Positions 3,104 to 48,913 of a stretch of 64,000 nucleotides of DNA are shown piece by piece. The notes beneath the pieces are model-generated. The model made no database searches and was not told the DNA's origin. It was given only the letters and a program-made list of their open reading frames with translations. The position numbers and the translations under genes are program-made. The stretch comes from a virus, in IMG/VR virus record IMGVR_UViG_3300029908_000017, positions 1 to 64,000 of that record. One strand, 5' to 3'. The first letter of the stretch is position 1. Each line of letters starts with the position of its first letter.

Positions 3104-4408
3104 TTATAGATTAAAATAGTACTGTGCTTCTAGCCCTTTGTCAAAGTGATATAAAAACGCTTTTGCGCCTCGTGTTTGGCCTACATAACCCTTTGAAGCA
3201 TGCCAAGAGTCTGCCGAACATAAGGAGGGAAGGGTGCGAATTTTTACACCCATAATCTCATCATCTAACTCTGCATGTAAATGACCGGTATGCCATTCTT
3301 TATACGTGGTAGCAGCCCATTCATCCTTTTGCTCAGTAGCCATTAATAAGGGTAGATTTTTTTTAATTTCTTTATCGCCGTGAGTAAATCCTAACAATGT
3401 TTGTCCGTACCTATAATATTTACGCAGAGTAGGTGAATTATTAATTGAAACATTTGGATGGCCTTTAAAGAAAGCAGCTAAATATTCCCCTAAATAAAAC
3501 GATCTCTCCATATCGTGATTACCTACACAAATAACAACATCGACAGGTATTTCAATAGCCAGTCCTGCAATAGTTTCTTGAATTACTTTACAACCTTTTC
3601 GAAATGTATTTTGCCAGCGGCTATCTTCTACTTGTGGAGTTCCTGCTGTTGTCGATTCATCCGAACCATCGGAATTGAATAAATCATTACCAATTGGTAA
3701 TAATATTCTTTCCACTAAATTAATTGGTGCTTTTTCAATTAAATCACCAACCGCATATTTAAATAATCGCACTGCTTCATTGGAATCGTAGTTTTCTCCA
3801 CCTGTTTCTTCTCCCCAGCTTAATTTACCAATATGTAGATCAGCGATATTGATTTCCAAACAATACTTTTTTTCAGGGTTAGCTGGAATTTCATCAAGTT
3901 CATTCCACTTCAGAGTATTGATATTTGAATTTAACTCATTTTTAAAATACTCCAATAGTTCTTTTGTTGTATCAATTGCTTTGATGCGTTCCAACTTTAC
4001 AGCTACTCGAAATAATTCTTTGACGTTGGCTTTTCCACTATCTTTTGCAATACCTTCTACTCTACCATTTTTATAAACAAGGTCTTTATTCACATCTTTT
4101 CGTGCCATGTCCCATTTTGTTACTTCGTATGTTTTTACACGCCAGATGGTTAGATCCACTTTTGCCGCAATTAATAATTCTTCCAATGTGCGAATTGAAC
4201 CAGACGATTGCAGCAGTCCTTCAGTATCATTGGATTTAAACTCGATTTTGCTATCTGTTTTTTCTGGAGTGGAACGTAATGGTGAAATGATTTCTGATGC
4301 TTCTGTGTTAGTAAACCCGTTATTTAATAAGGATTGAAAAATATTTCGTTTATTTTTTCGAGCTTTTGTAATAATTACCAGTCCTTCGTTTATGCGTTCT
4401 TGAGTCAT
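3104..4408 (-). CDS. Calcineurin-like metallophosphoesterase
   Basis: DLHIG, GND, GNHD, HGD and GHLH motifs. Confidence 0.85.
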   Translation of the reverse strand: MTQERINEGLVIITKARKNKRNIFQSLLNNGFTNTEASEIISPLRSTPEKTDSKIEFKSNDTEGLLQSSGSIRTLEELLIAAKVDLTIWRVKTYEVTKWDMARKDVNKDLVYKNGRVEGIAKDSGKANVKELFRVAVKLERIKAIDTTKELLEYFKNELNSNINTLKWNELDEIPANPEKKYCLEINIADLHIGKLSWGEETGGENYDSNEAVRLFKYAVGDLIEKAPINLVERILLPIGNDLFNSDGSDESTTAGTPQVEDSRWQNTFRKGCKVIQETIAGLAIEIPVDVVICVGNHDMERSFYLGEYLAAFFKGHPNVSINNSPTLRKYYRYGQTLLGFTHGDKEIKKNLPLLMATEQKDEWAATTYKEWHTGHLHAELDDEIMGVKIRTLPSLCSADSWHASKGYVGQTRGAKAFLYHFDKGLEAQYYFNL

Positions 4409-4699
4409 ATTTGATTTTATTGTATATGCCGACAGAAAATTTACGATTCGAAGTATATAATATCGTAGTTAAAACCTTGATTATCAGTTACTTCAACCTT
4501 AAAAAATTTTTTAAACTTATTTTTGTATTTATATACCAACAACTTACATAAGTAGTTGGGAAACAATAATTTAAAATAATACAAGTTAAAAAGAATATTT
4601 TTAACAAAAATTTCTGAAAATTTTACTGATTCTTTTTCTGTAAGCCATTTGGATTTGTGAATCACAGTGTACATTACGAAGGAATCATCGTTTGTCAAA

Positions 4700-5518
4700 T
4701 TAAACTACGATACTTAGAATCAATATTACAGATGTTGTACCCGTCGCGCCACCTGGATTAGAGGGAGAAACATAGTCACTAGGCCAAGGAGTATTTCCAA
4801 AGAGATTAGTGTTCCAAAAAATACCTGTATCTGTAAACAGTACAGTTTTATCATCTAGAATTACACCATTCTTTTCAATGTATGCCAAATTCAATTTCGG
4901 TACAGCTGCTGGATAAATCAATGGTAAATTTGGATCGGTAGCAATATTATATTTAAAGTAGTAGCCTGCAGGATCTGCTCCAGAAGTAGGAAGCCATCCC
5001 CTTTCTGATGTGTTTGGACTAGGAATGGTAATCATTCCACCAGTATTAACAGGAATACCGCATGGTAACGCAAAAAGAGGAAGACGATAAAGAGTATTGC
5101 TAACATATGTGTTCACATTGATATCTCCTGAAGTAATGCTATAAACTGATCCTTGCGCCAAATTCTGTATTAACTCAAAATCGGTTACGAGACTTTGAAT
5201 TTCTTGCAAAATAGTATCCAGCACACTATTTAGATACTCTACTGTGTTGGCGACTAAACAAACCTGATAGTCTAAAAAGTATGAAGTATCGGAAGTGGGT
5301 ACTCCTTGTCCAAGTGTTTCCAGTTGATTGGGTGTGCCTACAGCTGCAAAAATATCGGTTACACCTCCATTAATATTTCTAGTTCTTTGTTTGACAAAGA
5401 TGTACTTAGTGATATTTTGAGCAGAAGTAATCTCCAACGTCATTTGATAGCTACTTAAGTTTGGTATATAAACCGTCGCTGATTGTAGCAAGGTTACTTG
5501 CGCAGATTGAATAGCCAT
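4700..5518 (-). CDS. Putative virion structural protein (start revised to ATG 5518)
   Basis: T/S/N/P-rich, charge-poor composition; promoter-like element ends 7 nt before ATG 5518. Confidence 0.5.
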   Translation of the reverse strand: MAIQSAQVTLLQSATVYIPNLSSYQMTLEITSAQNITKYIFVKQRTRNINGGVTDIFAAVGTPNQLETLGQGVPTSDTSYFLDYQVCLVANTVEYLNSVLDTILQEIQSLVTDFELIQNLAQGSVYSITSGDINVNTYVSNTLYRLPLFALPCGIPVNTGGMITIPSPNTSERGWLPTSGADPAGYYFKYNIATDPNLPLIYPAAVPKLNLAYIEKNGVILDDKTVLFTDTGIFWNTNLFGNTPWPSDYVSPSNPGGATGTTSVILILSIVV

Positions 5519-5525
5519 TGAAAAA

Positions 5526-5554
5526 AGGATAACCGATAATGAATGAAGAAGCAA
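5526..5554 (-). promoter_or_regulatory. sigma70-like promoter, near-leaderless
   Basis: TTGCTT-N17-TATCCT-N7-ATG(5518). Confidence 0.45.
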
Positions 5555-5835
5555 GACCAGAGGTAAACGAACAAATTGAATTAATTACAACCAAATTACA
5601 AAAAGCTTTAGATGGGTTTGTTTTTAATTATGATTCTGGTAATTCGTTAAAATTATTAAGGGAAAAAGTGAGTTACGAGTTGGAGACACACGGTTATTGT
5701 GGGTTTCCTGTTATTTCTTATGAACTACGCGAAATTGATAAAGATTTATTAGAAGGTCATGTGATTATCGAATTACCTAAATTAGTTCAACTCAACTTTT
5801 TTTGTAATGAAAGTGGTTGCACAGTTGTAAAATAA
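5539..5835 (+). CDS. Hypothetical protein
   Basis: 98-aa ORF starting the plus-strand island. Confidence 0.6.
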   Translation: MNEEARPEVNEQIELITTKLQKALDGFVFNYDSGNSLKLLREKVSYELETHGYCGFPVISYELREIDKDLLEGHVIIELPKLVQLNFFCNESGCTVVK

Positions 5836-5845
5836 CCCGTATATT
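5817..5845 (+). promoter_or_regulatory. sigma70-like promoter, near-leaderless
   Basis: TTGCAC-N17-TATATT-N8-ATG(5854). Confidence 0.55.
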
Positions 5846-5853
5846 GTTCGACC

Positions 5854-6585
5854 ATGGATGTATATGATAATTTAAAAGATGGTGAGGGGGCAGGTACATT
5901 GATTGTGGGACGTTACAATAAAGAAGGTAAAGTCCAACAGAAATCCACATTTTCAGGCTCACCCGAAGATCTTGCCGATCTAGCGGAAAAATATAAAAAC
6001 TCCATGTCTGTTGCACGGGCTGAATTTCTTCCTTCATTAGCTAAGATACCATTTTCATTATCATCAAATACTCCCAAACCCAAGATACAAAAAAAACGTG
6101 GTCCTAAACCTAAAATAAAAGTAGTACAAGAAATACAACCACCTACTAATGTAGCAAAAGTTAATCCTAATAAGGTTTTTGATTTAGATACAAACGATTA
6201 CTTTAACGAAGATTCTACAAAAACAACGGGTACTATTAATTTTGAAGAACCCGAAGAATATGGGCATAATGAAGAACCCTCTACAGCACAACAGATTACA
6301 CAAAAGCGAATTGCATTCCAAAATCAATTTGGAAAGATATTCACAGAAGTAGAGGATGTAATTTATCAGGAAAATGGATTTTCTATCATGTTGGTGTACA
6401 CTAATATCAATAAATTAACATTTATTCCAAAAGAAGGTGAGACTTTAGAATTCTCAGAAGATCAAAGAACGTTTAAAAATGTGTTTTTTCCAGGGACGAT
6501 ATTCGACTACCATGGTAAAATTATAATGATATTATATGTTGAAGTTGATAATATTGAAGAAACGGAGAATACTGATAATGAATAA
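5854..6585 (+). CDS. Hypothetical protein upstream of portal (basic KKRGPKPK patch)
   Basis: 243-aa ORF. Confidence 0.7.
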   Translation: MDVYDNLKDGEGAGTLIVGRYNKEGKVQQKSTFSGSPEDLADLAEKYKNSMSVARAEFLPSLAKIPFSLSSNTPKPKIQKKRGPKPKIKVVQEIQPPTNVAKVNPNKVFDLDTNDYFNEDSTKTTGTINFEEPEEYGHNEEPSTAQQITQKRIAFQNQFGKIFTEVEDVIYQENGFSIMLVYTNINKLTFIPKEGETLEFSEDQRTFKNVFFPGTIFDYHGKIIMILYVEVDNIEETENTDNE

Positions 6586-6730
6586 ATTTGGAAATATAAC
6601 AGAAGAAACAAGATCGGACTTTGATTCTACAAAGAAAGTAGAATTTATTGATAAGGAAGGTTTTGAAGTAGCAGATAAAAAAAATAAGAATAAGTTGAAG
6701 AATCCTGTAGCCATCAAAGAAACTAAATAA
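6578..6730 (+). CDS. Small hypothetical protein (start revised to ATG 6578)
   Basis: MNKFGNIT..., overlaps the upstream stop and ends 2 nt before the portal ATG. Confidence 0.5.
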   Translation: MNKFGNITEETRSDFDSTKKVEFIDKEGFEVADKKNKNKLKNPVAIKETK

Positions 6731-6732
6731 TC

Positions 6733-8514
6733 ATGCCTGTTTACGATGGAAGTTCTGGTCCTTCCGGTTTTTTTAATGGAGGAGGATTACCAAATAATCA
6801 ATATCCAAATCCATATTATAATGTAGCACAGCAGTATTTACCAATTTCCGTAGAGTCCCAATTATGGTGGATGGACTATTTATTGTTGCGTAATGGATTT
6901 TTAAAGTCTGCCCTGGCTCGTGTAGTTAATTATTTCATTAATACATTGATTATTGAAGATGCTAGTGAAGATGTGAAAAAGAAATATGAGGAAATATTTC
7001 GTACTCTAAAATATAAAGTATTACTAAATACGTCAGGGTTAAATCTGACGGCAATGAGTAACGAAGTGGTATCTGTTACTCAAGGATTTGATAGATTTTT
7101 AAAATGCTTAGATTGTAATAATACAATCAATATTGAAAAAACTAATAATTATGAGTTTAATAAAGGTAAGTACACCCATACATGCCCTAGTTGTAAGAGC
7201 AGAAAATCTGAAATTATAGACATTCCATCCAAGGATATTAAGAAGCTCTCGATTATTCACTGGCCAATTAGACAGTTGATTACACGACATGACAAGATTA
7301 GTGGGCAGACAGATTACTATTGGCAGATACCTCAAGAATATGTACGTAATGTTAGTAAGAAAAATAATAAATTTTTTTCCAAGGTCACTCCAAAGTATGT
7401 AATGGATTGTATATTTACGTCTGGAGGCCCAAAACTTTTAAAGCTTAACAAGGCCAATTTATTACACTTAAAATTACCTCATCCTTCTTCGATTGAAACG
7501 GATGGCAAGGCCATTCCTCTAGGGATGTTTATGTTTGATGACTTTTTTAGCTATCAGACTGTAAAAAGATTTAATGAAGTTATTATGTATGAACATATTG
7601 TACCGTTTAATCTTTTTTCGATGGCTAGTGATAATAGCCCTGCATCTAGTCCAGTATTCAACCAAAATGGTGGTGTATGGAAGTCAGCAATTGAAGAAAT
7701 GGTTCTCGCACATAAACGAGATCCTGGGTCTTATCAAACTTTCCCATTCCCAGTAAACTTTCAACAATTAGGAGGACAAGGTAAGGAACTGGCTCCTGTT
7801 GAATTAATGCAGCAATACAAGTCAGATATTCTTGGAAACTATAATATTCCTCAAGAGTTATATAATATGAACTTTGCTACTGCAAATGCCCCTGCTCCAA
7901 TGTTAAGGTTATTTGAAAATGCATGGAGTATCATACCCGACAGTCTGAATGAAGTACTCCAACATATAGCAGATATTGTTAGCAAGATTTATGGTTACGA
8001 AAAAATTAAAGTAAGTATGTTAGCTTCGACAATTAGTGATGATATTGAAAAGAAATCAATTATAAATTCGCTTGTTCAAGCAAATGTATTAGCTAAATCA
8101 ACTCTTACCGAGATTTATGGAATTAATTACATGGATCAAGTACGTAAGAAAATTAAAGAAGACGATGAGACATCTCGTATTCAACGAGAAGAACAAGAAA
8201 AGTCTGAAATTGAGCAATCTACGGAAGCTAATGTACTTAATCAGCCATCTGCTCAGACTGCACCTGGTCAACCAGCTGCGAGTTATAATACAGCAGGATC
8301 GAATCCTAACGATGTATTACAACAAGCCCAAGAGATTGCTCAAAAACTTTTACCCCTGGAAGCAGGACAAATACGTACAGAATTACAAACAATCAAAAGC
8401 ACCAACCCTACTCTTTATGCTGCTGTAAAAACGGCTTTGGGAGAATTACGTGCTTCTGGTAAGTCACAAGGTAACCAACAAATCAAACAAGAAGCAGCCC
8501 AAGCCAATCAATAA
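6733..8514 (+). CDS. Portal protein with CxxC...CxxC insertion
   Basis: 593 aa; FQQLGGQGKELAP-x-EL...ILGNYNIPQELY stem pattern, Q-rich tail and NPTLYAAV C-terminal helix resemble large-phage portals. Confidence 0.65.
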   Translation: MPVYDGSSGPSGFFNGGGLPNNQYPNPYYNVAQQYLPISVESQLWWMDYLLLRNGFLKSALARVVNYFINTLIIEDASEDVKKKYEEIFRTLKYKVLLNTSGLNLTAMSNEVVSVTQGFDRFLKCLDCNNTINIEKTNNYEFNKGKYTHTCPSCKSRKSEIIDIPSKDIKKLSIIHWPIRQLITRHDKISGQTDYYWQIPQEYVRNVSKKNNKFFSKVTPKYVMDCIFTSGGPKLLKLNKANLLHLKLPHPSSIETDGKAIPLGMFMFDDFFSYQTVKRFNEVIMYEHIVPFNLFSMASDNSPASSPVFNQNGGVWKSAIEEMVLAHKRDPGSYQTFPFPVNFQQLGGQGKELAPVELMQQYKSDILGNYNIPQELYNMNFATANAPAPMLRLFENAWSIIPDSLNEVLQHIADIVSKIYGYEKIKVSMLASTISDDIEKKSIINSLVQANVLAKSTLTEIYGINYMDQVRKKIKEDDETSRIQREEQEKSEIEQSTEANVLNQPSAQTAPGQPAASYNTAGSNPNDVLQQAQEIAQKLLPLEAGQIRTELQTIKSTNPTLYAAVKTALGELRASGKSQGNQQIKQEAAQANQ

Positions 8515-37028: not shown

Positions 37029-37599
37029 TTTTTGAAGATTGTTCGATTATTTCATGATAAACCCTAAAAGAATCACTTGAATATTTTCGCCAATGCTCTC
37101 TACCTGGGATATCCCCACTCAAGCACATTTCCGAAATATTATAGTAATATTCTTTTGCTAAAGACAAGGCATCCAATGTAACTGCGAGATCACTATCTGT
37201 CAAGATTACGTTAACGCTTTTAATGTCGTTACTCATTACTCTTATAACATAGGTTACTGTTTAACGCTCCTGGCAATTTACATGTATTTAAATACCAAAG
37301 TAGTGACTTGGCAAGCTCATCAGCAGGTAATCGGAGAATCTCTTTATATAAATCGCTATATTCCCAATTTTTGAAATTCACGGATACTAAGCCCAGACTT
37401 ATCTCTTTATTGACCCACTTTTCCAGTTTACTAATATTATTAATGTTTTTCATATATCTCTACTATATCTACCACTGTTTCAAATATTCTACTCCACTTC
37501 GTCATGAATCCTTCAGGCTTATTCGGTTTAGGTTGCTCCGATAATTCTGCAATTTTCTTTACACCTTTACTTGTCGCTCGTAACTTTTTGACTAGATTT

Positions 37600-39675
37600 T
37601 TATTCATACTCCTTGTCCAAGTCTATAACATGGTCAACAACATCTGCCAACTTTTCAGAATGATCGATAATGAACACTTGTTCGAATTGATTTCTAGGAA
37701 ATTGCCGAATCATATCAAAATATATTTCTTGATTGATTTTGTGTAATCCAGTAGAACCTTCATCGATGATTATGAAACTGAAGTTCTGCGCAAAAAGTTG
37801 TAGCAACGCCAGTCGTAAACACAACCCGATAATCATGGCTTGCCCTCCCGAAACAATAGGAAGCCTATGTCCTTCGACATTAATTACATCAATACCAAAA
37901 TCGTCATTAACATTTGCCGTATAAGGAATATTGAACTTTACCAAATTTTGAAGTAAGTAATCTGTAACAACATATGAGTATTTTTGAATGACCTTTTTCG
38001 CAAACTGATTAGCGTGAAAGGCATCGTACAAAGCAAGTAACGATTTTTCTAAAATATTCCGTTGTTGATTTCGTTTAATATTCGTTTCCGAATTTACAAT
38101 ACGTTGATTGAGATTACTAATCTCTGCATTCAATACAGAAACGGCTTTATCAATCTCCTGTTTTTCAAGTATCTTTACTTTATATACCGAAGCGTCATAA
38201 CTAGCTTGTTGCAATAGCTTATGTAACTCTTCTTTACCCAAACTTGTAAATTCAGTATTTAAACTATTTCTAAGGGCCTCGCTGGCTTTAATATCTTGTT
38301 CAATTAACATAATGTTATGTACAAAAATATTAATATCCTTCGATAGCTTATCTAGTTTACTATAAGCAGCAATATACAGTTGATGTGAACTTTCGTCATA
38401 TTCAACATGAGTATATTTCAATAACTCAGTTTGAATAAACTGATAATTATTAGACAGTTTATCATATGTTTCTTTATGCTTAAGATAAGGAGTGATCTTG
38501 TCCCTCTGCAAAGTTAAATCGATATTTGAACGAAGAACCACATCTTGGTAACCTGCTAACTCTTCACGAAGGATCTTTATCAGATTCGCGATTACATGAA
38601 TATCCTGCCCACACGTTGGACAGACTGCTTTATCCGTTAATGAGGAATATTTACGTAACTTAGCATTTGCCTCAACAATATTCTTCTCCGCTAAATTTAT
38701 TGTTGTGTGGAGGGCTTCAATTTGAATTCTTAACGCATTAATATTCTCATTAATATTGTTAATATCAAATTCTTTTAGTCTTTTTTCAACATCAGCAGAT
38801 TGATTACTTAATGCATTACGGCTCTCCATTCGAATTTTACATTCTTCGAATTTCGCCAACTGTTCGGAAAGTTGGCTTAAACTAAACGGTGCGTTCTTTA
38901 GTTCTGCTTCAAACCCTTCTTTGATCTTTTGCTCGCTGTTTAATTTATTGAGTAACTGCGTGAGCTTAAGATTAATCTCTTCTTGCTTAACAATATTAGC
39001 CAAAGTGAATTGAATATCCCGAATTTGATTTTCCAAAACACGATAACCATCCAATGTTACAAGCGTATAATCAGCAGATTTGATCTTCTGTAATACAAGA
39101 CTCTCGTTTTTGATAAGCAATTCTGCCTCGATTGCCTGTACATCGTCCACAGGAAAAGGAGGAGGAAGCGTTTTGATATAATCCTTCCAGATGATATCTC
39201 GTAACTTCTCGGTATTGGGTACAAGAAATATCTTTTGAAAGATACTCGTTCGTTCTGCTTTACTTCCTAGAAATAATTTAGGAATCTCTCCCTGTCTGGC
39301 AATAATGATATTATTGAATATCTCAGAATTAATGTTTAGTAGCTTGTCCCAGAATTCTTTGACTTCACTAGATTTCTTATATTCCTTACCTGCATATTTT
39401 AAAATGACCTTAGACGTGTCTAAATGCCTTTCTAAGTAAACTTCCTTACCTTCGTGTGTGAACTTACCAGAGACATAACCTGTCACCTCCCCGACAGTTA
39501 TAGCCTCCTCTTTGGTGCCTTCAATGTCACCTGTACATAAAAAGGATATACCTTCAACAATTCTTGATTTTCCTTTACCGTTTGATCCAATAATACCAAT
39601 AATCCCTTTTGAAAAATCAAAACATCTATTTTTAAAGACTCGAAAATTCTTAAAATAAAGTTTTTCTAGAATCAT
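37600..39675 (-). CDS. SbcC/Rad50-like ATPase (start revised to 39675)
   Basis: GSNGKGKS, Q-loop, coiled coil, CPTC hook, SGGQ, IIDEG and H-loop. Confidence 0.92.
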   Translation of the reverse strand: MILEKLYFKNFRVFKNRCFDFSKGIIGIIGSNGKGKSRIVEGISFLCTGDIEGTKEEAITVGEVTGYVSGKFTHEGKEVYLERHLDTSKVILKYAGKEYKKSSEVKEFWDKLLNINSEIFNNIIIARQGEIPKLFLGSKAERTSIFQKIFLVPNTEKLRDIIWKDYIKTLPPPFPVDDVQAIEAELLIKNESLVLQKIKSADYTLVTLDGYRVLENQIRDIQFTLANIVKQEEINLKLTQLLNKLNSEQKIKEGFEAELKNAPFSLSQLSEQLAKFEECKIRMESRNALSNQSADVEKRLKEFDINNINENINALRIQIEALHTTINLAEKNIVEANAKLRKYSSLTDKAVCPTCGQDIHVIANLIKILREELAGYQDVVLRSNIDLTLQRDKITPYLKHKETYDKLSNNYQFIQTELLKYTHVEYDESSHQLYIAAYSKLDKLSKDINIFVHNIMLIEQDIKASEALRNSLNTEFTSLGKEELHKLLQQASYDASVYKVKILEKQEIDKAVSVLNAEISNLNQRIVNSETNIKRNQQRNILEKSLLALYDAFHANQFAKKVIQKYSYVVTDYLLQNLVKFNIPYTANVNDDFGIDVINVEGHRLPIVSGGQAMIIGLCLRLALLQLFAQNFSFIIIDEGSTGLHKINQEIYFDMIRQFPRNQFEQVFIIDHSEKLADVVDHVIDLDKEYE

Positions 39676-39679
39676 TTTT

Positions 39680-39856
39680 TTATTTAATTGTTTTACCCAA
39701 TGAAGGCAATGATTGAATAGTCGATTCGATAATATTACGCACAGTAGCTTCAATTCGATTAACAAATTCGGGAGATACTCTGGTAAACTCATGATGCCGT
39801 TTTTGGGCTAATTCTAACGCCAGCTGTTTTACAGCCTTCTTATTTAATAGACTCAT
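39680..39856 (-). CDS. 58-aa histone-fold-like protein (unannotated)
   Basis: MSLLNKKAVKQLALELAQKRHHEFTRVSPEFVNRIEATVRNIIESTIQSLPSLGKTIK; RVS and KTI loop motifs; ATGA-coupled upstream. Confidence 0.65.
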   Translation of the reverse strand: MSLLNKKAVKQLALELAQKRHHEFTRVSPEFVNRIEATVRNIIESTIQSLPSLGKTIK

Positions 39857-40109
39857 TCTAACTCCTTGATTTTCTGGTAATCGTTTACAATTTCGTCATG
39901 AGATGCCTTTACCCAAAAATACCGTAAAATATTCTTAACATCTGATTCGGTGAGTCTTGCAGCCTGATGTTCAATAATATATTCTATCATTTCATCACGG
40001 TCTAATTCAAAACAGGTAGATATATCCATTTTAACTTAACCAATTATATTTTGTTACCAATCCCGCGATAAGAAACAGCAAGACCATACCAATCGCAAAA
40101 AGTTCAATT

Positions 40110-40670
40110 TTATTCATTTTTATTACAATCCTTACATAAACATCTTAACCAATTTGTCCCTACAATTTTTCCGTCTCTGCCACAACTTTCACAAGTTATG
40201 CTAGATAGACGTTCCGCGAAATTCACTAATCCACAAATAAACTCATCACCTCCGTAATAGTAAAAACGCAATCCACCAAATTTTTCTTTTACTTGTTGGG
40301 CTACTACTTGTTTTACGGCTTCTGGTTCTTCTCCGAGAATAATAGAAGAATCAATTATCGCATTTGAAATTCTTTTTTCTTTTTCCTCTTCTGTACTGAC
40401 GTATTTATAATAATTTTCCAAATATTCTTGAAAAGTATTATTTTTCTGCATTTCTGCAATTTTACGTTTTCGCTGTAAATAGGAGTAACGATTTTCTCTT
40501 GAATATTTAATATGGCTTTGAATACCTTCACACAATAGGTCTAAAATTCTAAACCACCCATCATTATGCTCAAAACCCCGATACATACATGAATACCGTT
40601 CAGTAGCATAACAGTATTTAAATATTTTAGGATATTTTTCACATAATTGCTTTTCAAGTTCAGGACGCAT
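40110..40670 (-). CDS. Conserved phage protein (QVKEKFGGLRFY family)
   Basis: GW...QVKEKFGGLRFY...CESCG...W-x-x-CLC; ATG at 40670 likely. Confidence 0.7.
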   Translation of the reverse strand: MRPELEKQLCEKYPKIFKYCYATERYSCMYRGFEHNDGWFRILDLLCEGIQSHIKYSRENRYSYLQRKRKIAEMQKNNTFQEYLENYYKYVSTEEEKEKRISNAIIDSSIILGEEPEAVKQVVAQQVKEKFGGLRFYYYGGDEFICGLVNFAERLSSITCESCGRDGKIVGTNWLRCLCKDCNKNE

Positions 40671-41124
40671 AATCGTCGCCCCTATCTTCATCAAAATCAC
40701 TGGTTATTACAATATAATCTCCAATTTGAAAATCGCCATTACCTTGAGCTAAAACGACTCCACCTTCAATAATTTGAACTAGATTATAGCATGTAAAATC
40801 ACTAATACTCCTGACTAATTCTTCTGGAATAACTGATAGAAGACCGGCATCTACAGGCAGATATCCAATAGTTTTTCCATTCCTGTCGATCAATGGATAA
40901 CGTCCATCTCCATAACAAGTGTTACAAATAAATACTACATGACTATCAATTGTTACGAATAAACCCTCTTCTTTTATATCAACACCCTGATCCTCGTATT
41001 CAAAAAGGATGCTACAAAACGTATCCCAAAAACCAGGAATACCTCCAAAAACATAACAAGGGTCCGTGATAACTACATTACCTTCAAACTTATACTTAGT
41101 AATATTTAATTTTTCAATTTTCAT
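40660..41124 (-). CDS. Conserved phage protein (DPCY...GDG-x-Y...VDAG)
   Basis: Motifs reminiscent of DUF4241-like proteins; start revised to ATG 41124. Confidence 0.6.
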   Translation of the reverse strand: MKIEKLNITKYKFEGNVVITDPCYVFGGIPGFWDTFCSILFEYEDQGVDIKEEGLFVTIDSHVVFICNTCYGDGRYPLIDRNGKTIGYLPVDAGLLSVIPEELVRSISDFTCYNLVQIIEGGVVLAQGNGDFQIGDYIVITSDFDEDRGDDYAS

Positions 41125-41270
41125 TTCGCTTTTCCACAATACGGACAATACCCTGTTCCATACGCATTAAAATTTAAAGTTGTCTTACAATCCGGACAAA
41201 TTCCTAAAAGAACAATAATTAACTTTCTGAACCAATAACGACTACGACAATACACTTTTCTAAAAATCAT
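41121..41270 (-). CDS. 49-aa zinc-ribbon protein (unannotated)
   Basis: ...CPDC...CPYCG; ATGA overlaps at both ends. Confidence 0.6.
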   Translation of the reverse strand: MIFRKVYCRSRYWFRKLIIVLLGICPDCKTTLNFNAYGTGYCPYCGKAK

Positions 41271-42382
41271 AAATAATTAGCTTTAAACTTATTCAAAACA
41301 TCTTTAGTTGTACCTGAATTCAAACTATCTAGACATTCAATACCTAGCTGATAATTTTCATCTGTAAAAGTTCCTGACTCTACTAACGTAGCCTTAAAGA
41401 TATCAGAAAGATTATTGTTAGTTATTTCCGAACGAATATTCACGTTTTCAATAACTTGGTTATTCTCCTTCAATAATGTGGTTTTAACAATGGCATGTTC
41501 ATAAAGAAATACAAATTCAGGCAACTTGTTAAACATTCCTTTACTGTATTTTAAGATATATACAGGACGTTTACCTGTAGTACTTAAACTATGTTGAAGT
41601 TCTTTAATTTCTTTATTTTTGAAACTCTGTTTGTCTTTTTCAAATTCCTTATAGCTATCATCTGTAAGATCGAAATAATGAAAGTTACGAATCAATGGAT
41701 ATTCAATAAAGTTTAGTTTATTACCATTCCAATGAATATATCGTTTTTGATTAATCTCGTCTAACTTGGTTACACCTAGAGAGCCACAATAACCTAGAAA
41801 CTGTCCACTCGATAAATACTTATAAGCTCCTGAATGAATATCCCCTGCAATAATACCTTTAAGAGTAGGATGATTAATGACAGTTTCTTCCCAGTTAATA
41901 TGTAATGTTTTTTTCTCTTCGCAATAACCAAACAACAGTGGTTCTTGGTAATGTAAGAATATAAATTCAACAATATCTTTTTTTAGGTTTAGCTGTTCGG
42001 TTAGTTTTTGCAAAACTGCTTCAGAATTATCGCTATAGTCTACTCCTACAAATGTAGACTCAATATTTACAGATTCAAAATCACAGATGTTTTCCCAGTC
42101 CTTATTATCAATTTGTTTTGAATGATCGCCTGAGATAGCTACAGGAGTTATGTTATTTGATTTAAGTTTTTTATTTAGTGTCTTAACAAAATCTATTGAA
42201 TAGGCAGTGGGTTTATTTGTGTCGAATAAATCTCCACAAGAAATAAAATATTTAACCTTTAACTGTATGGCCTTCAATACAGCTAATTCAAGATAGTCGT
42301 AAAGGTCTTTCTTAAGCTCTTCATTGTTAAGTAGTGCTCTCTCTAAATGTACATCGGATACAACTAAAAAACTATTTGTCAT
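41267..42382 (-). CDS. SbcD/Mre11-like nuclease
   Basis: SDVH, GDLFD, GDH, H, GDIH and YCGS. Confidence 0.9.
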   Translation of the reverse strand: MTNSFLVVSDVHLERALLNNEELKKDLYDYLELAVLKAIQLKVKYFISCGDLFDTNKPTAYSIDFVKTLNKKLKSNNITPVAISGDHSKQIDNKDWENICDFESVNIESTFVGVDYSDNSEAVLQKLTEQLNLKKDIVEFIFLHYQEPLLFGYCEEKKTLHINWEETVINHPTLKGIIAGDIHSGAYKYLSSGQFLGYCGSLGVTKLDEINQKRYIHWNGNKLNFIEYPLIRNFHYFDLTDDSYKEFEKDKQSFKNKEIKELQHSLSTTGKRPVYILKYSKGMFNKLPEFVFLYEHAIVKTTLLKENNQVIENVNIRSEITNNNLSDIFKATLVESGTFTDENYQLGIECLDSLNSGTTKDVLNKFKANYL

Positions 42383-42648
42383 ATTACTCCTCTTCGAATT
42401 AAGTCATTAATATACTTTTCTTCCATTTCTAGAACTTCACTTCGAATATCACTAAAAAATTGCTTACCATCATAATTGATAGTCGCAACCCATGTCTGAA
42501 GGTTATTATCGAATTCTATTGTAGAAGCGCGTTCCACAGTAGCATTACCAGCTTTCGATTTTAATTTATCTACAAGATTCGAATGCAGAGCTTTGATTGT
42601 ACCGGAAGAATTTATAAATATGCTTTTATAATTCTTGATGAAGCTCAT
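42379..42648 (-). CDS. Conserved partner of the DUF1257/DUF2997 module
   Basis: I-x-x-x-G-x-I...RAS-x-IEF...W pattern; context. Confidence 0.5.
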   Translation of the reverse strand: MSFIKNYKSIFINSSGTIKALHSNLVDKLKSKAGNATVERASTIEFDNNLQTWVATINYDGKQFFSDIRSEVLEMEEKYINDLIRRGVI

Positions 42649-42832
42649 TTATTGTTTCTTCTTCGTATTCATCTGTATACAAACGAGTATTCTCTTTTGC
42701 ACCACCTAAAAACTTCTCCAACCGAGATGTCGCTTCTGCACAAGTAGGCCCAAACCCTTGTACATCCCCTATGGAAATATCTCCATTTTTTGCAATTTTA
42801 ACTTTATAAGATTGTTTTGACATATTATTCAC
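42626..42832 (-). CDS. DUF2997-like protein
   Basis: I-x-x-NG...VQGFG-x-x-C-x-EAT-x-x-LE-x-x-LG...T-x-EY. Confidence 0.7.
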   Translation of the reverse strand: MNNMSKQSYKVKIAKNGDISIGDVQGFGPTCAEATSRLEKFLGGAKENTRLYTDEYEEETINELHQEL

Positions 42833-43282
42833 TAATTTTTAATACTTTAGCAGGTATATTAATACTTACATGACTAGGGTTAATTACATCGATAAACGCA
42901 GCATCATGATCAGCACTAAGTTGAGGCTTTAATACTTTATTCGTAGAAACTCTAAGTAACGTACAGCCACTCTCATCATCCACATAAATATTATTACCTA
43001 CAATTCGCAATTGACTAACTTTAATATTCATCTTTTATATATTCATAATTGGTATCAAAATCAATTTTATCCAATCGTGAAGCATCAAATCGTATTTTTG
43101 CTTTATGTACTCTATCTGTATTGCCTTTGTAAATATAAATCAATACAGCTGTTGCAATATCACCTGATTCAAAAATAATTTTATCTTCCGGAACCAACAA
43201 TCGGTCAGATGGTGGTTCATCTAGCCCAATAAAATAGTCATGGAGAAATTTACGTATCACTGCTTTACTTTGCATAAATTAC

Positions 43283-43663
43283 TTAGTTAAGACAAAATTC
43301 AATAATTCCTTCATCCGTAGTATTGATTTCGTATTCCAATTCCTCTTCTTCAAAATATGCCTTGGTCAATTCAAAACTATATCGTTGTTTCAAACTATCC
43401 AGATTTTCACCAAGTTGTTGCGCAATTGAAGAATCATAAAAATCCCCATAAATTTTATATTCACCATCAATAAGGTTGATACCCAAATCGTAACCATCCT
43501 GAGGATTGACTGCTACGTAATCATAAATCGTTTCTCTAGCTGGATCATTACGATATGTACGTGCTTTAGTTTTTTCTACAATTCGCCAGCCGAAATTTTC
43601 CAATGATTTATCCAATAATTGGAAATTACTAATATTTGTTTTTATTTCAACGGTGTGACTCAT
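43283..43663 (-). CDS. DUF1257 (Ycf35-like) protein
   Basis: MSH-x-x-x-IKT...L-x-x-x-L-x-x-x-G...YDLG...D-x-Y...L-x-QRY. Confidence 0.75.
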   Translation of the reverse strand: MSHTVEIKTNISNFQLLDKSLENFGWRIVEKTKARTYRNDPARETIYDYVAVNPQDGYDLGINLIDGEYKIYGDFYDSSIAQQLGENLDSLKQRYSFELTKAYFEEEELEYEINTTDEGIIEFCLN

Positions 43664-44227
43664 TTTTTTATATTTTAATTTTTGTTAAATCTTTTGTAAT
43701 AATCTCAACATATTCAATATTGAGTTTATCAAAAGCATCTTGAATACATAAAAGTATATCATATTTTGAATAAGTGGATATTTCATTATTCTCAAATGAT
43801 TGCATTTTAATTAAATCATTTTCAACATTAATAATATCTCCCTTTATTACTTCACATAAAGGGAGATTATCAATCAGTACTACATCATTCTTATCATAGA
43901 TTCGAAGGATGTCAAATTGGTTAGGGTAAGCACAGTCAACAGACATATCAGGATAATTTAATTTCAACTTGTTTATTATAAACCCTAGTAAAGCTTGCAT
44001 CGTCCAACGCGCTATACATAGCTTCACTTACACATAACAATTTCTCTGAGGCTACCTCAAGCAATAACAAATTATTACCATCATTATTCTCCCTATCCGG
44101 ATAAGATAAAGATATATAATAGTGCTCAGAATTACCATCAACTTGTTGATATATACCCGGTTCACTTAATACATCATTTAAATCAATAAAAGATTTATCT
44201 TCTTTTACAATAATTTCTATATTCATA

Positions 44228-45340
44228 TTATATTTCCAATGCTCGAAGATATTCTCCAGTAATTGAAGATATATCTGAAGTATTTTCAGCTACAGTTTTA
44301 ACATCTAACAAGAATTCTTTTAAAGCATTTCGGTCATCGACATTATCTTTACTTTTCAGATCTCGGTTTTCTGCAAGAAACGTCTGTACTTCTGTGATAC
44401 GTTCTTCTAACACTTTGTCACCAAAGATATTCAATTTTTCAAAATCTTGTATCTTTTTTAACAACGTGTTCTTATTAACATCAGAAACAACGTCGCCTTT
44501 ATTAATTTTATTAATAATTACAGCAAAAACACTATTTACACTTTCACGCAATTCTTTGATTGAGTTATCGACAAAATTGGTAATTTGTTCCAACTGTTTT
44601 GCAGCTTGTTGGTTATAATGTTCCTTGGCTTCGTTAACAGTGGCAGCAACTTGAGCTTCTTCTTCCAATAATACCCGAATATTAACCTCTTGTAGCTCGT
44701 TAGGCATATTAATACGGAATTCGGAATATTCGAAATTAAACTTTCCACGTATCTCATTTACTGATGGGTATGCCGGTCGTAGAACATCTGCATATTCTGG
44801 ATAAGCCGCAAGTGCTTCTGTTTTATATTGCTCGTAATTCTCTACAAACGAATCAACAAGAATATTAAATTCTTCCTTATAGGTCTCTAATTGTTTACGT
44901 ACCTCTTCCAGATTATGAAAAGCTACAAAATGTGCTTCCGCAATAGGAAAGCGATTACTCATTCGCTTAAGATACAATCTAGCACGTTGTTCAATTTGAG
45001 CAAATTGATTAAACAATACTGGTTTAACCAGCATCTTTTTGCCAAGTTTAATAATATCTGGGACTTTTTCAATTTCCAGGTCCGATTCTTTTAATGAAGT
45101 AGACATACTCCACCTTGAAATATGAATAGATATTAGTACACCTGTACTAAACAACTTATCATAGTAACGATCAAGAACTCGGATTTGATTGTGATTTTCC
45201 AATTCCTCAACTAATTGTTGCCCTCGTTGGTTTACAGGGGTGTCCAGAACCTCTGTAACACTTATTGATTCTTCCGATTGTTCCAATATATCAATATTAG
45301 AATCCACTAACTCTTCGATAACTTTCTTATGTCTTCCCAT
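44228..45340 (-). CDS. DUF3150-like protein
   Basis: I-x-I-x-x-W...LG-x-K...FV...YP...KF-x-F pattern; usual neighbour of DUF1257/AAA. Confidence 0.65.
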   Translation of the reverse strand: MGRHKKVIEELVDSNIDILEQSEESISVTEVLDTPVNQRGQQLVEELENHNQIRVLDRYYDKLFSTGVLISIHISRWSMSTSLKESDLEIEKVPDIIKLGKKMLVKPVLFNQFAQIEQRARLYLKRMSNRFPIAEAHFVAFHNLEEVRKQLETYKEEFNILVDSFVENYEQYKTEALAAYPEYADVLRPAYPSVNEIRGKFNFEYSEFRINMPNELQEVNIRVLLEEEAQVAATVNEAKEHYNQQAAKQLEQITNFVDNSIKELRESVNSVFAVIINKINKGDVVSDVNKNTLLKKIQDFEKLNIFGDKVLEERITEVQTFLAENRDLKSKDNVDDRNALKEFLLDVKTVAENTSDISSITGEYLRALEI

Positions 45341-45342
45341 AT

Positions 45343-46911
45343 TTATTTAACCTCAATTAATTCACCTTTGTTATTCAATGTATACCAAGTATTAGCTTTA
45401 ATACCATCTTCTCCTGCATAACCGACAACTATACGATTACGGTTACCGTCATCCCAAACCAAAGATAAGCAACCATTTTCTCCGACTTTTGTTTTTCCAT
45501 ACAATCCTGCCACAACTGCAATAGTATCTTTACCAACAGCTGCTGCTGTGCTGTAATATCCTGAACTCGCTGCTTTGCTGGAATTACCTGAACTCTCTGC
45601 TTTGCTGTAATCTCCTGAACTCGCTGCTGTGCTGTAATCTCCTGAACTCGCTGCTGTGCTGGAATCTCCTGAACTCGCTGCTTTGCTGTAATCTCCTGAA
45701 CTCGCTGCTGTGCTGTAATCTCCTGAACTCGCTGCTTTGCTGGAATTACCTGAACTCACTGCTGTGCTGGAATCTCCTGAACTCGCTGCTTTGCTGGAAT
45801 CTCCTGAACTCGCTGTTTTGCTGTAATATCCTGAACTCACTGCTTTGCTGGAATATCCTGAACTCGCTGCTTTGCTGTAATCTCCTGAACTCGCTGTTTT
45901 GCTGGAATTACCTGAACTCACTGCTTTGCTGTAATCTCCTGAACTCGCTGCTGTGCTGGAATTACCTGAACTCGCTGCTTTGCTGTAATCTCCTGAACTC
46001 GCTGCTGTGCTGTAATATCCTGAACTCGCTGCTTTGCTGTAATCTCCTGAACTCGCTGTTTTGCTGGAATCTCCTGAACTCGCTGCTGTGCTGGAATTAC
46101 CTGAACTCACTGCTTTGCTGTAATCTCCTGAACTCGCTGCTGTGCTGGAATTACCTGAACTCGCTGCTTTGCTGTAATCTCCTGAACTCGCTGCTTTGCT
46201 GTAATCTCCTGAACTCGCTGCTTTGCTGTAATCTCCTGAACTCGCTGCTGTGCTGGAATCTCCTGAACTCGCTGCTGTGCTGGAATCTCCTGAACTCGCT
46301 GTTTTGCTGGAATCTCCTGAACTCGCTGCTGTGCTGGAATTACCTGAACTCACTGCTTTGCTGTAATCTCCTGAACTCGCTGCTTTGCTGTAATCTCCTG
46401 AACTCGCTGCTGTGCTGTAATATCCTGAACTCGCTGCTTTGCTGTAATCTCCTGAACTCGCTGTTTTGCTGGAATCAAGTTTTTTAACTTTTAAAATTAA
46501 ATCGTTAACCTGTTTATCAATTTTTGTTTTATTGCAAAACAAGCGAGCAATTAATTCTGGTGTTGCGTCGTTTAATTCCCAAACTTTATTCAATACATCT
46601 GAATACTGTGGTTCGGAAAAATAATCTAAGGCTACCTCCTTACCCTTTAAAGCGTTCATTAAACTTGTATAATGTGACGTAATGGAAGAAACTTGGTGTT
46701 GTGTTAATGTAGAAATATCATCGTTCTTAACAACATTTTCCAAAACGAAATCACCAATCCCATTCCATTCGCATTCAACAAATCTTTTTTGTTTATGAAC
46801 ACTATCGTTTTCTGTCCATTTAAACAATTCAACAGCCTTACTATGGCTATTACCAGGTTCATGGGCTATAACTCCATCACGTCTAACAACAATACTATGA
46901 AAATCACACAT
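45343..46911 (-). CDS. Nonapeptide-repeat (SSGDYSKAA) beta-solenoid phage protein
   Basis: 34 repeats plus conserved C-terminal GEDGIKANTWY cap; ATG 46911 (MCDFHS) is the likely start. Confidence 0.8.
   Translation of the reverse strand: MCDFHSIVVRRDGVIAHEPGNSHSKAVELFKWTENDSVHKQKRFVECEWNGIGDFVLENVVKNDDISTLTQHQVSSITSHYTSLMNALKGKEVALDYFSEPQYSDVLNKVWELNDATPELIARLFCNKTKIDKQVNDLILKVKKLDSSKTASSGDYSKAASSGYYSTAASSGDYSKAASSGDYSKAVSSGNSSTAASSGDSSKTASSGDSSTAASSGDSSTAASSGDYSKAASSGDYSKAASSGDYSKAASSGNSSTAASSGDYSKAVSSGNSSTAASSGDSSKTASSGDYSKAASSGYYSTAASSGDYSKAASSGNSSTAASSGDYSKAVSSGNSSKTASSGDYSKAASSGYSSKAVSSGYYSKTASSGDSSKAASSGDSSTAVSSGNSSKAASSGDYSTAASSGDYSKAASSGDSSTAASSGDYSTAASSGDYSKAESSGNSSKAASSGYYSTAAAVGKDTIAVVAGLYGKTKVGENGCLSLVWDDGNRNRIVVGYAGEDGIKANTWYTLNNKGELIEVK
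45541..46476. repeat. 27-bp tandem repeat, 34 full copies plus a partial (coding)
   Basis: Unit cctgaactcgctgctttgctgtaatct with six variable positions. Confidence 0.97.
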
Positions 46912-47317
46912 AATTTTAATATTCCAATTCAATAACTATTTCACCACTAGGTCTTGTCCATTCCAGATTACTGTACCTAACCAAATTTGCGCAGCGATAT
47001 TCAATTTCAGCTTCTCTCGCTACGAATACAACGTCTTTATCAAGTATATCTTTGCGATTTTCCAATATTTGAATTATTAATTCTCTATAAGTCATAATTT
47101 TATAGATCAATATCTTTTTTAAAATCGTAAACAATAACATTGTCAGGTAATGATTCTTCCTGAAAATAACCTACTTCTATCAATGTATGCTGTGCTTTTT
47201 GCAGTACACGTGATTCTACATTTGTAGGATCTTTCACCTTTAAAACTAATGTATAGATATCAAACAAAGCATATAGCATTTCTGAATATTCACGACTTCT
47301 CAATTTTTCAAAATAAC

Positions 47318-48913
47318 TCATATCTCCATACTTCTTAAAATAGTTTCCGAGTTTTCAATAATTTCACCATCTTTTCCAGCAATTTGTAACTTACCTTTTG
47401 CGGAATCTCTCATACTTTTTAAACGTTCTGGATACATCTCAGCGTTAGGCTTGAATCTTTTAATCTCTGCTAACAAATCTTCTTCTAATACTTCTCGGCT
47501 ATCATGATAGAAAGCACGAAACAAAGCAGATTTGATTAGTTCTTCAATCTCCGAGCCAATATAATTGTTTGTTAATTTAGCTAATTTTTTTAAACTAAAC
47601 TTTTCAGGATCACGATTATATTTTATCAATAGCTTTTTAAATATATCCTCACGTTCTTCTAAATCAGGCAGGTCTACCCAAAAAGCAGCATCGAATCGAC
47701 CCGGACGTAATAAGGCAGGAGGTAGAATTAAATGATTGTTACAGGTACCGATAAAGAATGGTGCAGAATCATTCCCACGATCTGCCAAATACGTCAGAAA
47801 CGCTCCAAGCATTCGTGAGCCTACACCCGAATCACCAATACCCGATGTAGCGTTTGAACTCAATGACTTTTCAATTTCATCAATCAAAACCACACATTTG
47901 CCTATCGATTCAATGGTCTGTAAGACTTGTCGTAAGTTGCGTTCAGAATCTCCTACATGAGAAGAAAACAACTTCCCAATATCCAATAAAAATAAAGGTA
48001 CTTTAAATTCTGTAGAAATAGCACGAGCGGTAATGCTCTTACCACCACCAGGAATACCACAAAGAATTATACCACGAGGAGTACAAAGACCATATTCTTT
48101 TGCTTCTTTACTAAATGCCCGTTTTCTAAGATTGACCCAATTCTTTAGACCTTCAAATCCACCAATATTATCAAAACTAATGCCCGTTTCAATGTATTCT
48201 AATAAACTATTCTTTTTAATTTGAGTTATCTTTTCATTAAAAACAATCTTTATAAACTCGTCATTGAACTCACCCTTCGTACAAACAAAGGCAAAGGCCA
48301 AAGCAGACTCTACTTCGTTATTAGCCATACCTTTACAGGCTTCAATAACGTTCTCAATAAAATCTTCGTCTAATTTTGCTTCTGGTTTATTTTTGGCTTT
48401 TCTAGAAACGTTGGCACTGATTAATGTGTCATTAAACTTTTCACGTATTGCTTTTTTATCAGGTAACTCATATTCCACTATCTGAATTTCCTTTTCTAAC
48501 TCCAAAGGGATATTGAAATTTGGAGAAATAAAAATCAAGGTGTTGCCATCTCTTCGTAAATAACTACTGAGATTACGTAAACACCGAATATAATCTTTTG
48601 ATTTCATCTTACTATCCATCTCTAGATGGAAGTCAAGAAGAACGTAAGCACTTCGTTTTTCGTTACGGCCTGCTGAGTTAAGAAGAAATTCAAATAACTT
48701 ATTTGGGTCATCCGTACCTTTAATTATATTGCCGTCTTTATTCAAGTCTACTAAACCAGTAATACAATCCCAGCGATAAAAGGTGCCGAACTTCTCACGT
48801 TTAGGCAATATCGTTAGTAGGTCATTGGTAACACGTTTTTCTTCATGTGTATTGATTACCAGCATTGGATAACTGGCTTTTGCGTAATTTAATATTTTAT
48901 CGTTAAAATTCAT
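47318..48913 (-). CDS. Ycf46-like AAA+ ATPase
   Basis: GIPGGGKS, IDEIEK, CN, LPPALLRPGRFD; inactive N-terminal AAA-like domain (T-x-EE-x-R, LLDFH). Confidence 0.9.
   Translation of the reverse strand: MNFNDKILNYAKASYPMLVINTHEEKRVTNDLLTILPKREKFGTFYRWDCITGLVDLNKDGNIIKGTDDPNKLFEFLLNSAGRNEKRSAYVLLDFHLEMDSKMKSKDYIRCLRNLSSYLRRDGNTLIFISPNFNIPLELEKEIQIVEYELPDKKAIREKFNDTLISANVSRKAKNKPEAKLDEDFIENVIEACKGMANNEVESALAFAFVCTKGEFNDEFIKIVFNEKITQIKKNSLLEYIETGISFDNIGGFEGLKNWVNLRKRAFSKEAKEYGLCTPRGIILCGIPGGGKSITARAISTEFKVPLFLLDIGKLFSSHVGDSERNLRQVLQTIESIGKCVVLIDEIEKSLSSNATSGIGDSGVGSRMLGAFLTYLADRGNDSAPFFIGTCNNHLILPPALLRPGRFDAAFWVDLPDLEEREDIFKKLLIKYNRDPEKFSLKKLAKLTNNYIGSEIEELIKSALFRAFYHDSREVLEEDLLAEIKRFKPNAEMYPERLKSMRDSAKGKLQIAGKDGEIIENSETILRSMEI

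Follow-up and report, generated by a model that had tools for sequence, protein, structure and literature searches.

Archaea and bacteria are known to possess short histones of the α3 type, recognised only in 2023–2025 (PMC11390915, PMC10627809, PMC11317129, PMC12701072). The phage counterparts of these histones come from computer catalogues only, as the "phage histones" (A0A2E7QIQ9; PMC11390915) and the VTTHFP, VHHHFP, VFFHFP and BBVHFP clusters (hLife 2025, PMC13681535), and none of these catalogued α3-type proteins has undergone bench testing. The present analysis concerns a small gene in the first 64,000 nt of IMG/VR virus record IMGVR_UViG_3300029908_000017. This stretch, referred to below as the window, is part of a 74-kb record with a CheckV completeness of about 36%, which is present in many peat metagenomes. 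The gene lies on the minus strand at 39680–39856 (58 codons followed by TAA) and encodes a two-helix histone-fold protein (P0001), recognised from its open reading frame (ORF), its homologous clusters, a profile match to the archaeal histone HTkC and an AlphaFold2 (AF2) model. The protein is distantly homologous to HTkC, HLp and HBb, the short α3 histones found in archaea and bacteria. On balance, it is probably a minimal, strongly basic histone consisting of α1, loop L1, α2 and loop L2, which would form dimers that bind and bend DNA while the phage genome is replicated and recombined.

The best reference point is PDB entry 9F2C, the structure of HTkC, a face-to-face, α3-truncated histone of Thermococcus kodakarensis (PMC11390915). 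In the crystal of HTkC with DNA, contacts are made by K7, S8, K9 and K11 at the start of α1, by R22 and V23 in L1, and by R51, K52, T53 and Y55 in L2, with R22 inserted in the minor groove (bioRxiv 10.64898/2025.12.06.692711). Several of these positions are common to HBb, HLp and HMfB, and R22, K52 and T53 match the DNA-binding residues of HMfB (bioRxiv 10.64898/2025.12.06.692711). In other histones, an Arg-Asp clamp positions L2 (PMC11390915). A further arginine of HTkC, R45, builds a toroidal tetramer together with the C-terminal carboxylate of the partner, and the R45A variant is a dimer resembling the DNA-bending HBb.

Sequence and fold homology to short histones

An exhaustive HMMER search of 1.84 billion representative proteins, clustered at 50% identity, recovers 246 representative clusters related to the protein at E ≤ 1e-3, mostly 57–65 amino acids (aa) in length and aligned end to end; a word-based search finds two close relatives only. 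A copy with 63% identity is located directly before the SbcC gene of a syntenic relative, L003, and the comparison of the two copies gives a proportion of nonsynonymous differences (pN) of 0.26 with saturated synonymous sites. Given the 246 clusters, the synteny with L003 and this pN value, the small ORF is a real, conserved gene; the possibility that it is not a gene is ruled out by family size and synteny. At least 200 proteins listed by the family-profile search are all named "hypothetical protein" or unnamed, and none carries a Pfam domain. Likewise, scans of the protein and of 90 aligned members against Pfam, PHROGs and NCBIfam give no meaningful match. The family is thus large yet invisible to these three collections, and its genes are called "hypothetical" or missed.

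When the profile of these 90 members is compared with PDB sequences, HTkC (9f2c_A) is matched at E 6.5e-7 with low bias, over profile positions 2–56 and chain residues 2–50, and all other matches have E ≥ 0.2. A phmmer search with the protein alone against all PDB sequences returns a single match, again 9f2c_A (E 0.031), and the hexapeptide RVSPEF at the L1/α2 junction is identical in the two proteins.

The AF2 model, built from the family alignment, has a predicted local distance difference test score (pLDDT) of 93.5 and contains an α1-L1-α2-L2 core in which a short α1 is folded back on a long α2. Helix α1 (residues 6–17, 39806–39841; assigned by DSSP on the model) has a basic N-terminal end comprising K6, K7 and K10. 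It is followed by the conserved L1 motif F24-T25-R26-V27-S28 (39773–39787), which aligns to R22-V23-S24 of HTkC, and by α2 (residues 29–49, 39710–39772), the presumed dimerisation helix according to the model and to a covarying residue pair, 34/46. The chain ends with L2 and the C-terminus, P51-S52-x-G54-K55-T56-I57-K58 (39683–39706), recognised by conservation; it stops two residues past T56, and no α3 helix is predicted. All these elements are encoded on the minus strand. The original prediction, made from the sequence alone, had described a basic helix, an RVS loop, a long helix and a terminal GKT without helix 3, and the model agrees with it in each of these elements.

HTkC is also ranked first in a VIA-align search of 48,161 PDB representatives (Z 5.8, root-mean-square deviation (rmsd) 1.8 Å, 53 aligned residues, 32% identity), although a Z of 5.8 is under the level that would be safe alone for a small helical match. 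The next entries are TAF4/TAF12, H3, HLp of Leptospira (Z 5.4), HBb of Bdellovibrio (Z 5.0) and nucleosome chains, with HPhA (1KU5) in the list at Z 4.1; rmsd values of the best matches range from 1.8 to 2.9 Å over 49–58 residues. The top rows of a Foldseek search are mostly histone folds (HBb, template modelling (TM) scores 0.72/0.71, rmsd 2.0 Å), a list used qualitatively, with all E-values at least 1 and no row at E ≤ 0.001. Homology to short histones is well supported because the fold ranking is combined with the sequence match, and not on account of Z values alone. The histone likeness proposed beforehand therefore holds as a structural reading, in the profile match and in the first rank of HTkC among folds, and falls short of significance in the Foldseek comparison.

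DNA contacts, dimerisation and relation to known classes

Six DNA-contacting positions of HTkC can be traced to like residues in the family. K7 and K11 correspond to K6 and K10 (Lys or Arg in 79% and 99% of the 90 members, respectively), and R22 and V23 correspond to R26 (Arg 93%) and V27 (Val 94%). In L2, where the profile alignment ends at G54/G50 and residues were placed by motif position and structural alignment with a one-residue offset, K52 and T53 correspond to K55 (Lys 76%) and T56 (Thr 100%), and the clamp arginine R51 to G54 (Gly 99%, 89/90). The tetramer arginine R45 corresponds to S49, in a column occupied by Ser in 22, Arg in 20 and Ala in 16 of the members (Arg 22%). Near-invariant positions are N5, L14, R20, R26, V27, P51, S52, G54 and T56, with P51, S52 and G54 at 94–99% and T56 fully invariant. 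The chain ends one or two residues past T56 in 70/90 members, and the mean net charge of members is +6.8. Conservation is thus strongest in the two loops and at the start of α1, the parts of HTkC that touch DNA. The original prediction had taken RVS and KT as the paired L1 and L2 DNA-binding loops and had named homologues conserving both as a test; RVS and KT fall on the HTkC contacts R22/V23 and K52/T53, and R26, V27 and T56 are conserved as that test demanded. By homology and charge, the protein would be expected to bind DNA; a coating or protective effect on replicating DNA, as put forward in the original prediction, is hypothetical.

Evidence for a dimer comes from mean-field direct coupling analysis (mfDCA) of 247 family sequences (effective number 196). 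Two pairs, A13/F31 (4.03) and R34/T46 (3.78), exceed the highest score obtained from 30 column shuffles (3.46), a control that ignores phylogeny and leaves the covariation as supportive evidence, not proof. The first pair is an α1–α2 core contact of the histone fold, and its changes are size-compensating. Positions 34 and 46 are 12 residues (about 18 Å) apart on α2, symmetric about the midpoint of the helix, and vary in a charge-compensating manner, with 58 opposite-charge pairs (including polarity swaps) versus 6 like-charge pairs. These two residues cannot touch within one straight helix, and an antiparallel α2–α2′ crossing would bring them into contact, which suggests an antiparallel α2 handshake dimer. 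Weaker pairs inside the shuffle range (A17/I47, A13/I43, V9/I43, R26/T56 and F31/I57) fit α1–α2′ and L1–L2′ contacts.

In the proposed mechanism, two copies would pair through their long antiparallel α2 helices in a histone handshake, as the covariation suggests. By homology to the HTkC-DNA crystal, L1 of each copy would lie beside L2 of its partner, creating two DNA-binding sites per dimer, with R26 entering the minor groove and K55/T56 and the α1 start (K6, K10) resting on the phosphate backbone. The DNA would be bent by the dimer, as by HBb or HTkC R45A, rather than wrapped by a tetramer; a dimer is likelier than a tetramer because the tetramer arginine is S49 here. In replication or recombination, the protein would probably have an architectural role, as a DNA-binding protein that the phage itself supplies and that has no sequence specificity.

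Among known histones, the protein comes closest to HTkC, which alone of the solved structures gives a significant sequence match and which also leads the structural ranking; at 59 aa, HTkC is similar in size to the 58-aa protein. HTkC has a short α3 and the RxTxxxxD clamp, whereas the family described here ends one or two residues past the Thr, with Gly in place of the Arg and no Asp. The proteins differ further in the tetramer arginine (R45 in HTkC, Ser here and Arg in the minority of members noted above), in L1, which is about five residues longer here, and in the near-invariant Pro-Ser that the family has before L2.

HBb (Bd0055 of Bdellovibrio bacteriovorus; PDB 8CMP, 8FVX, 9F0E; PMC11317129), an α3 histone of the "bacterial dimer" type, matches the fold over its whole length and is likewise small and basic; no sequence match to it was found at E ≤ 10 in the phmmer or profile search. 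The HBb dimer bends DNA, and the same behaviour is predicted here as the tetramer arginine is missing. HBb keeps an RKTxxxD motif, absent here, and a short C-terminal segment (PMC11390915), and it is a cellular chromatin protein, whereas the present protein is phage-encoded.

The HMfB-type nucleosomal histones have the paired RVS (L1) and KT (L2) DNA-binding loops in common with the protein. They differ in a 10-residue α3, a longer α2, the Arg-Asp clamp and the dimer-dimer contacts of the hypernucleosome (PMC11390915), none of which is found here.

The catalogued phage proteins resemble the present one in being encoded by Caudoviricetes, in their α3-type fold without a full clamp and in their predicted DNA binding or bending. 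However, a long C-terminal helix serves for tetramerisation in "phage histones" and VTTHFP, whereas the protein ends at L2. VHHHFP proteins have a seven-residue tail and conserved K8, K9, K47 and R48, of which the tail and K47/R48 are not seen here; the lysine-rich N-terminal tail of VFFHFP (5–40 residues) and the terminal helix of BBVHFP are also missing. The separation of the family from "phage histones" and from the four clusters is drawn from the published descriptions of these groups.

The α3 histones of Schwab et al. (2024) are defined by a 3–4-residue α3 and the RxTxxxxD motif (PMC11390915). Both published defining features fail here, and the protein is therefore not filed as a plain member of that class; the "phage histones" of the same authors likewise do not have RxTxxxxD (PMC11390915). 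Nor does it have the conserved arginine of the face-to-face histones, the equivalent of HTkC R45 being S49, or the two folds in one chain of the DUF1931 pseudodimers, being a single 58-aa fold in a family of which PF09123 matches 0/90 members.

In sum, the family ends at L2, is without α3, clamp, tail or extra helix, is marked by a PSxGKT terminus of its own and an extended L1, and differs from each published description. Single members score about 15–18 bits against HTkC, and surveys with hidden Markov models (HMMs) at cut-offs of E < 1e-5 have for this reason probably missed most of them. It is conceivable, though we put it forward only tentatively, that these two-helix proteins, with their fixed PSxGKT(I/L)(K/R) C-terminus, constitute a histone class in its own right, one almost confined to phages and missed by the published HMM-based catalogues. 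They would act as DNA-bending dimers and, in phages that infect Verrucomicrobiota and further bacteria of soil and fresh water, would regularly accompany the modules for replication and repair (ligase, clamp, SbcCD, PD-(D/E)XK nucleases). If this were true, they would be the smallest functional histones known and a tractable model of the minimal requirements of histone-DNA binding. The histone fold is apparently reducible to two helices and two loops with the DNA-contact residues kept, which raises the question of what a phage gains from an architectural DNA protein of its own in a replication/recombination operon.

Some members are duplicated. P0151 and P0032 are full tandem doublets, and P0096, P0100, P0104, P0125, P0132 and P0144 are duplicated in part, with a further LNRKA-like start leading into a further α2-L2; some of the partially duplicated members carry a common N-terminal domain of about 90 residues. 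In fold searches with P0151, the second half again matches HTkC, and MAFFT placed all singlets on this half; no further tandem relatives of P0151 were found in the protein database searched. Duplicated members may represent single-chain pseudodimers.

Evidence bearing on function

A number of observations weigh against a DNA-bending histone dimer, beginning with the Z and Foldseek values and the phylogeny-blind covariation control given above. The family is without helix α3 and without both partners of the Arg-Asp clamp, with G54 in place of the Arg and no Asp as the chain ends. As these elements are missing, L2 may behave differently from L2 of other histones. The AF2 model of the tandem member P0151 is poor (pLDDT 74, predicted TM score (pTM) 0.45), with no clear pseudodimer match. 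No RNA runs are listed with the sequence, the holders being peat-metagenome DNA runs in 24/24 cases; in four of these runs that were compared, the sequence is identical and without variants. In four other loci (L005, L006, L008 and L009), the gene is a solitary one, flanked by capsid and portal genes that are encoded on the other strand. Finally, in about 5/150 representatives the reading frame continues past GKTI/GKTL into a hydrophobic, signal-peptide-like segment, which in four of them (P0005, P0019, P0024 and P0082) is followed by a cell-wall hydrolase domain (Hydrolase_2, DPBB_1 (twice) or SLT), contrary to a purely chromosomal role; P0045 also continues, into a lipoprotein-like signal.

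The missing α3 and clamp could also be explained by a true histone fold that does not bind DNA and acts as a dimerisation or adaptor module, like the TAFs, CENP-S/X or the DUF1931 pseudodimers, with SbcCD or replication proteins as its partner. We regard this as unlikely, albeit the strongest of the alternatives. TAF4/TAF12 chains reach fold-search scores on a par with histones, Schwab et al. warn that prokaryotic histone-fold proteins need not all be chromatin proteins (PMC11390915), and the stop codon four nucleotides before the start of the SbcC-like gene suggests coupled translation. However, the highest conservation falls on exactly those loops and the α1 start that contact DNA in HTkC, members are strongly basic, and the neighbouring genes vary by locus with no constant protein partner evident.

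A second alternative, that the likeness to histones is convergent and the protein an unrelated small helix-loop-helix protein, such as a transcription regulator or an anti-defence protein, appears improbable. The protein is very short, the Foldseek E-values are not significant, and the Pfam histone models PF00808 and PF09123 match 0/90 members. When other single members are searched against the PDB, 9f2c_A is first at E 0.035 for one and third at E 0.25 for another, and one member has no match, so that one of the four single members searched is without any PDB match. Against convergence stand the low-bias profile match to HTkC over nearly the whole length, the first rank of the same protein, at 32% identity, in an independent structure search, and the common RVSPEF. 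The nearest named clusters in a language-model search are likewise histone folds (PF00808/DUF1931, score 0.86), although this is a lead only.

Least credible of all is a role at the inner membrane, in lysis or at the cell wall, in which the basic domain would be a cytoplasmic head preceding or regulating a secreted peptidoglycan hydrolase: the four hydrolase fusions, the lipoprotein-like signal of P0045 and an RlpA-like gene directly downstream of the family gene in L002 (4587–5131) speak for it, but the extensions concern about 5/150 representatives, in which the basic C-terminus may simply have been co-opted as the charged beginning of a signal peptide. The present protein, like most members, is free-standing and encoded among genes of DNA metabolism or early genes, and no hydrolase gene adjoins it in the window.

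Gene boundaries and genomic neighbourhood

The ATG of the histone-fold gene (39856–39854) overlaps the TGA (39855–39853) of an upstream ORF as ATGA, and its TAA (39682–39680) is followed by AAAA (4 nt) and the ATG of the SbcC-like ATPase gene at 39675. In the longest-ORF list, the latter is given the ATG at 39792 as its start (730 aa) and so covers the small gene, which is read in a different frame. This over-extension amounts to 39 codons (39676–39792, minus strand). Matches to Pfam SMC_N and AAA_23 and to PHROG 77 begin at residue 1–3 of the 691-aa form (37600–39675, minus strand), and the SbcC of L003 starts at the homologous residue, 5 nt 3′ of the small gene of that phage. As the family matches and the L003 start agree, the true SbcC start is 39675, and the annotation should be corrected accordingly. 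The earlier statements that the ORF is hidden beneath an over-extended SbcC start, that it has an ATGA overlap upstream and that it stops 4 nt before the true SbcC ATG are all confirmed by these coordinates.

A Shine-Dalgarno sequence, AAGGAG (39862–39867, minus strand), is situated 5 nt 5′ of the small-gene ATG, within the end of the upstream ORF. In a rough scan, a 6-nt Shine-Dalgarno match was present in only 1/53 long ORFs of the window and no match in 42/53, which hints that this may be one of the strongest ribosome sites of the window and that the small gene may be strongly translated; the AAGGAG is not retained in L003. A promoter and terminator scan of 37400–42800 gave no excess over shuffles, and no second copy of the small gene was found within the 74-kb record.

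The upstream ORF joined by the ATGA (39853–40029, minus strand) encodes 58 aa and is acidic, with a charge of about −7 as compared to +5 for the histone-fold protein. It has no family match in the Pfam or PHROGs scans and is absent from L003. As a matter of speculation, its product could be a partner or chaperone of the basic histone-fold protein. An SbcD-like metallophosphoesterase gene (41267–42382, minus strand; Metallophos E 4.5e-6), which has a homologue in L003 at 3442–4551, starts the SbcD…SbcC block. The histone-fold gene lies within one long minus-strand block that includes genes for a DNA polymerase, a DnaB-like helicase, a primase, a helicase, SbcC and SbcD.

The context was compared across 20 other loci, in which no neighbour is constant. 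L003 is the sole locus of the 20 (1/20) with an SbcC neighbour as in the window. A link to SbcC was thus rejected as a family trait; its adjacency is limited to this phage lineage and therefore says little on function. In L019, a Verrucomicrobiae metagenome-assembled genome (MAG), a PD-(D/E)XK nuclease is encoded two genes upstream, a WGR-domain DNA ligase directly upstream and a DnaN-like clamp directly downstream, followed by a DUF3150/AAA module. Ligase-like and clamp-like genes are found downstream in L012 and L015, and L018 has an upstream nuclease-like gene that resembles, by eye, the PD-(D/E)XK nuclease of L019. In L011, the downstream gene has a metallophosphoesterase-like N-terminal motif, also read by eye. 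L007, L013, L014 and L017 contain runs of small, early-looking genes. The recurrence of DNA-metabolism neighbours in unrelated lineages fits a DNA-directed role.

Members of the family in the Atlas clusters are mostly viral, with some from Verrucomicrobiota. A pattern-limited scan of species genomes found four loci. Three of these belong to MAGs assigned to Chthoniobacterales, Verrucomicrobiae and Chthoniobacter, the fourth comes from a bacterial MAG without classification, and one of the four adjoins an integrase. As three of the four MAG loci are in Verrucomicrobiota, this phylum is a plausible host of phages with the family. Among 50,697 deposited phage records, tblastn with three members detected no relatives and gave only chance matches at E ≥ 3, and nothing was found by megablast of the 6-kb region against phages.

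Further observations concern individual loci. The four loci with the gene on the opposite strand (L005, 1311–1559; L006, 4998–5252; L008; L009) belong to one phage lineage, and their genes have a short C-terminal extension and lie between scaffold/capsid and portal/terminase genes, resembling an insert under its own regulation. In L019, the WGR-domain ATP-dependent DNA ligase and the DnaN-like clamp are encoded at 4926–6008 and 6251–7744, the clamp being unusually long at 497 aa. Beyond SbcD in the window lies a module of DUF3150, DUF1257-like, small-protein and AAA-ATPase genes (42379–48913), which also occurs in L019 (7959–11629), L003 (339–3463) and L007 (29–907). Its DUF3150 and AAA components are confirmed by Pfam, and its distance from the histone-fold gene is no more than a few kb in L019 and two other phage contigs.

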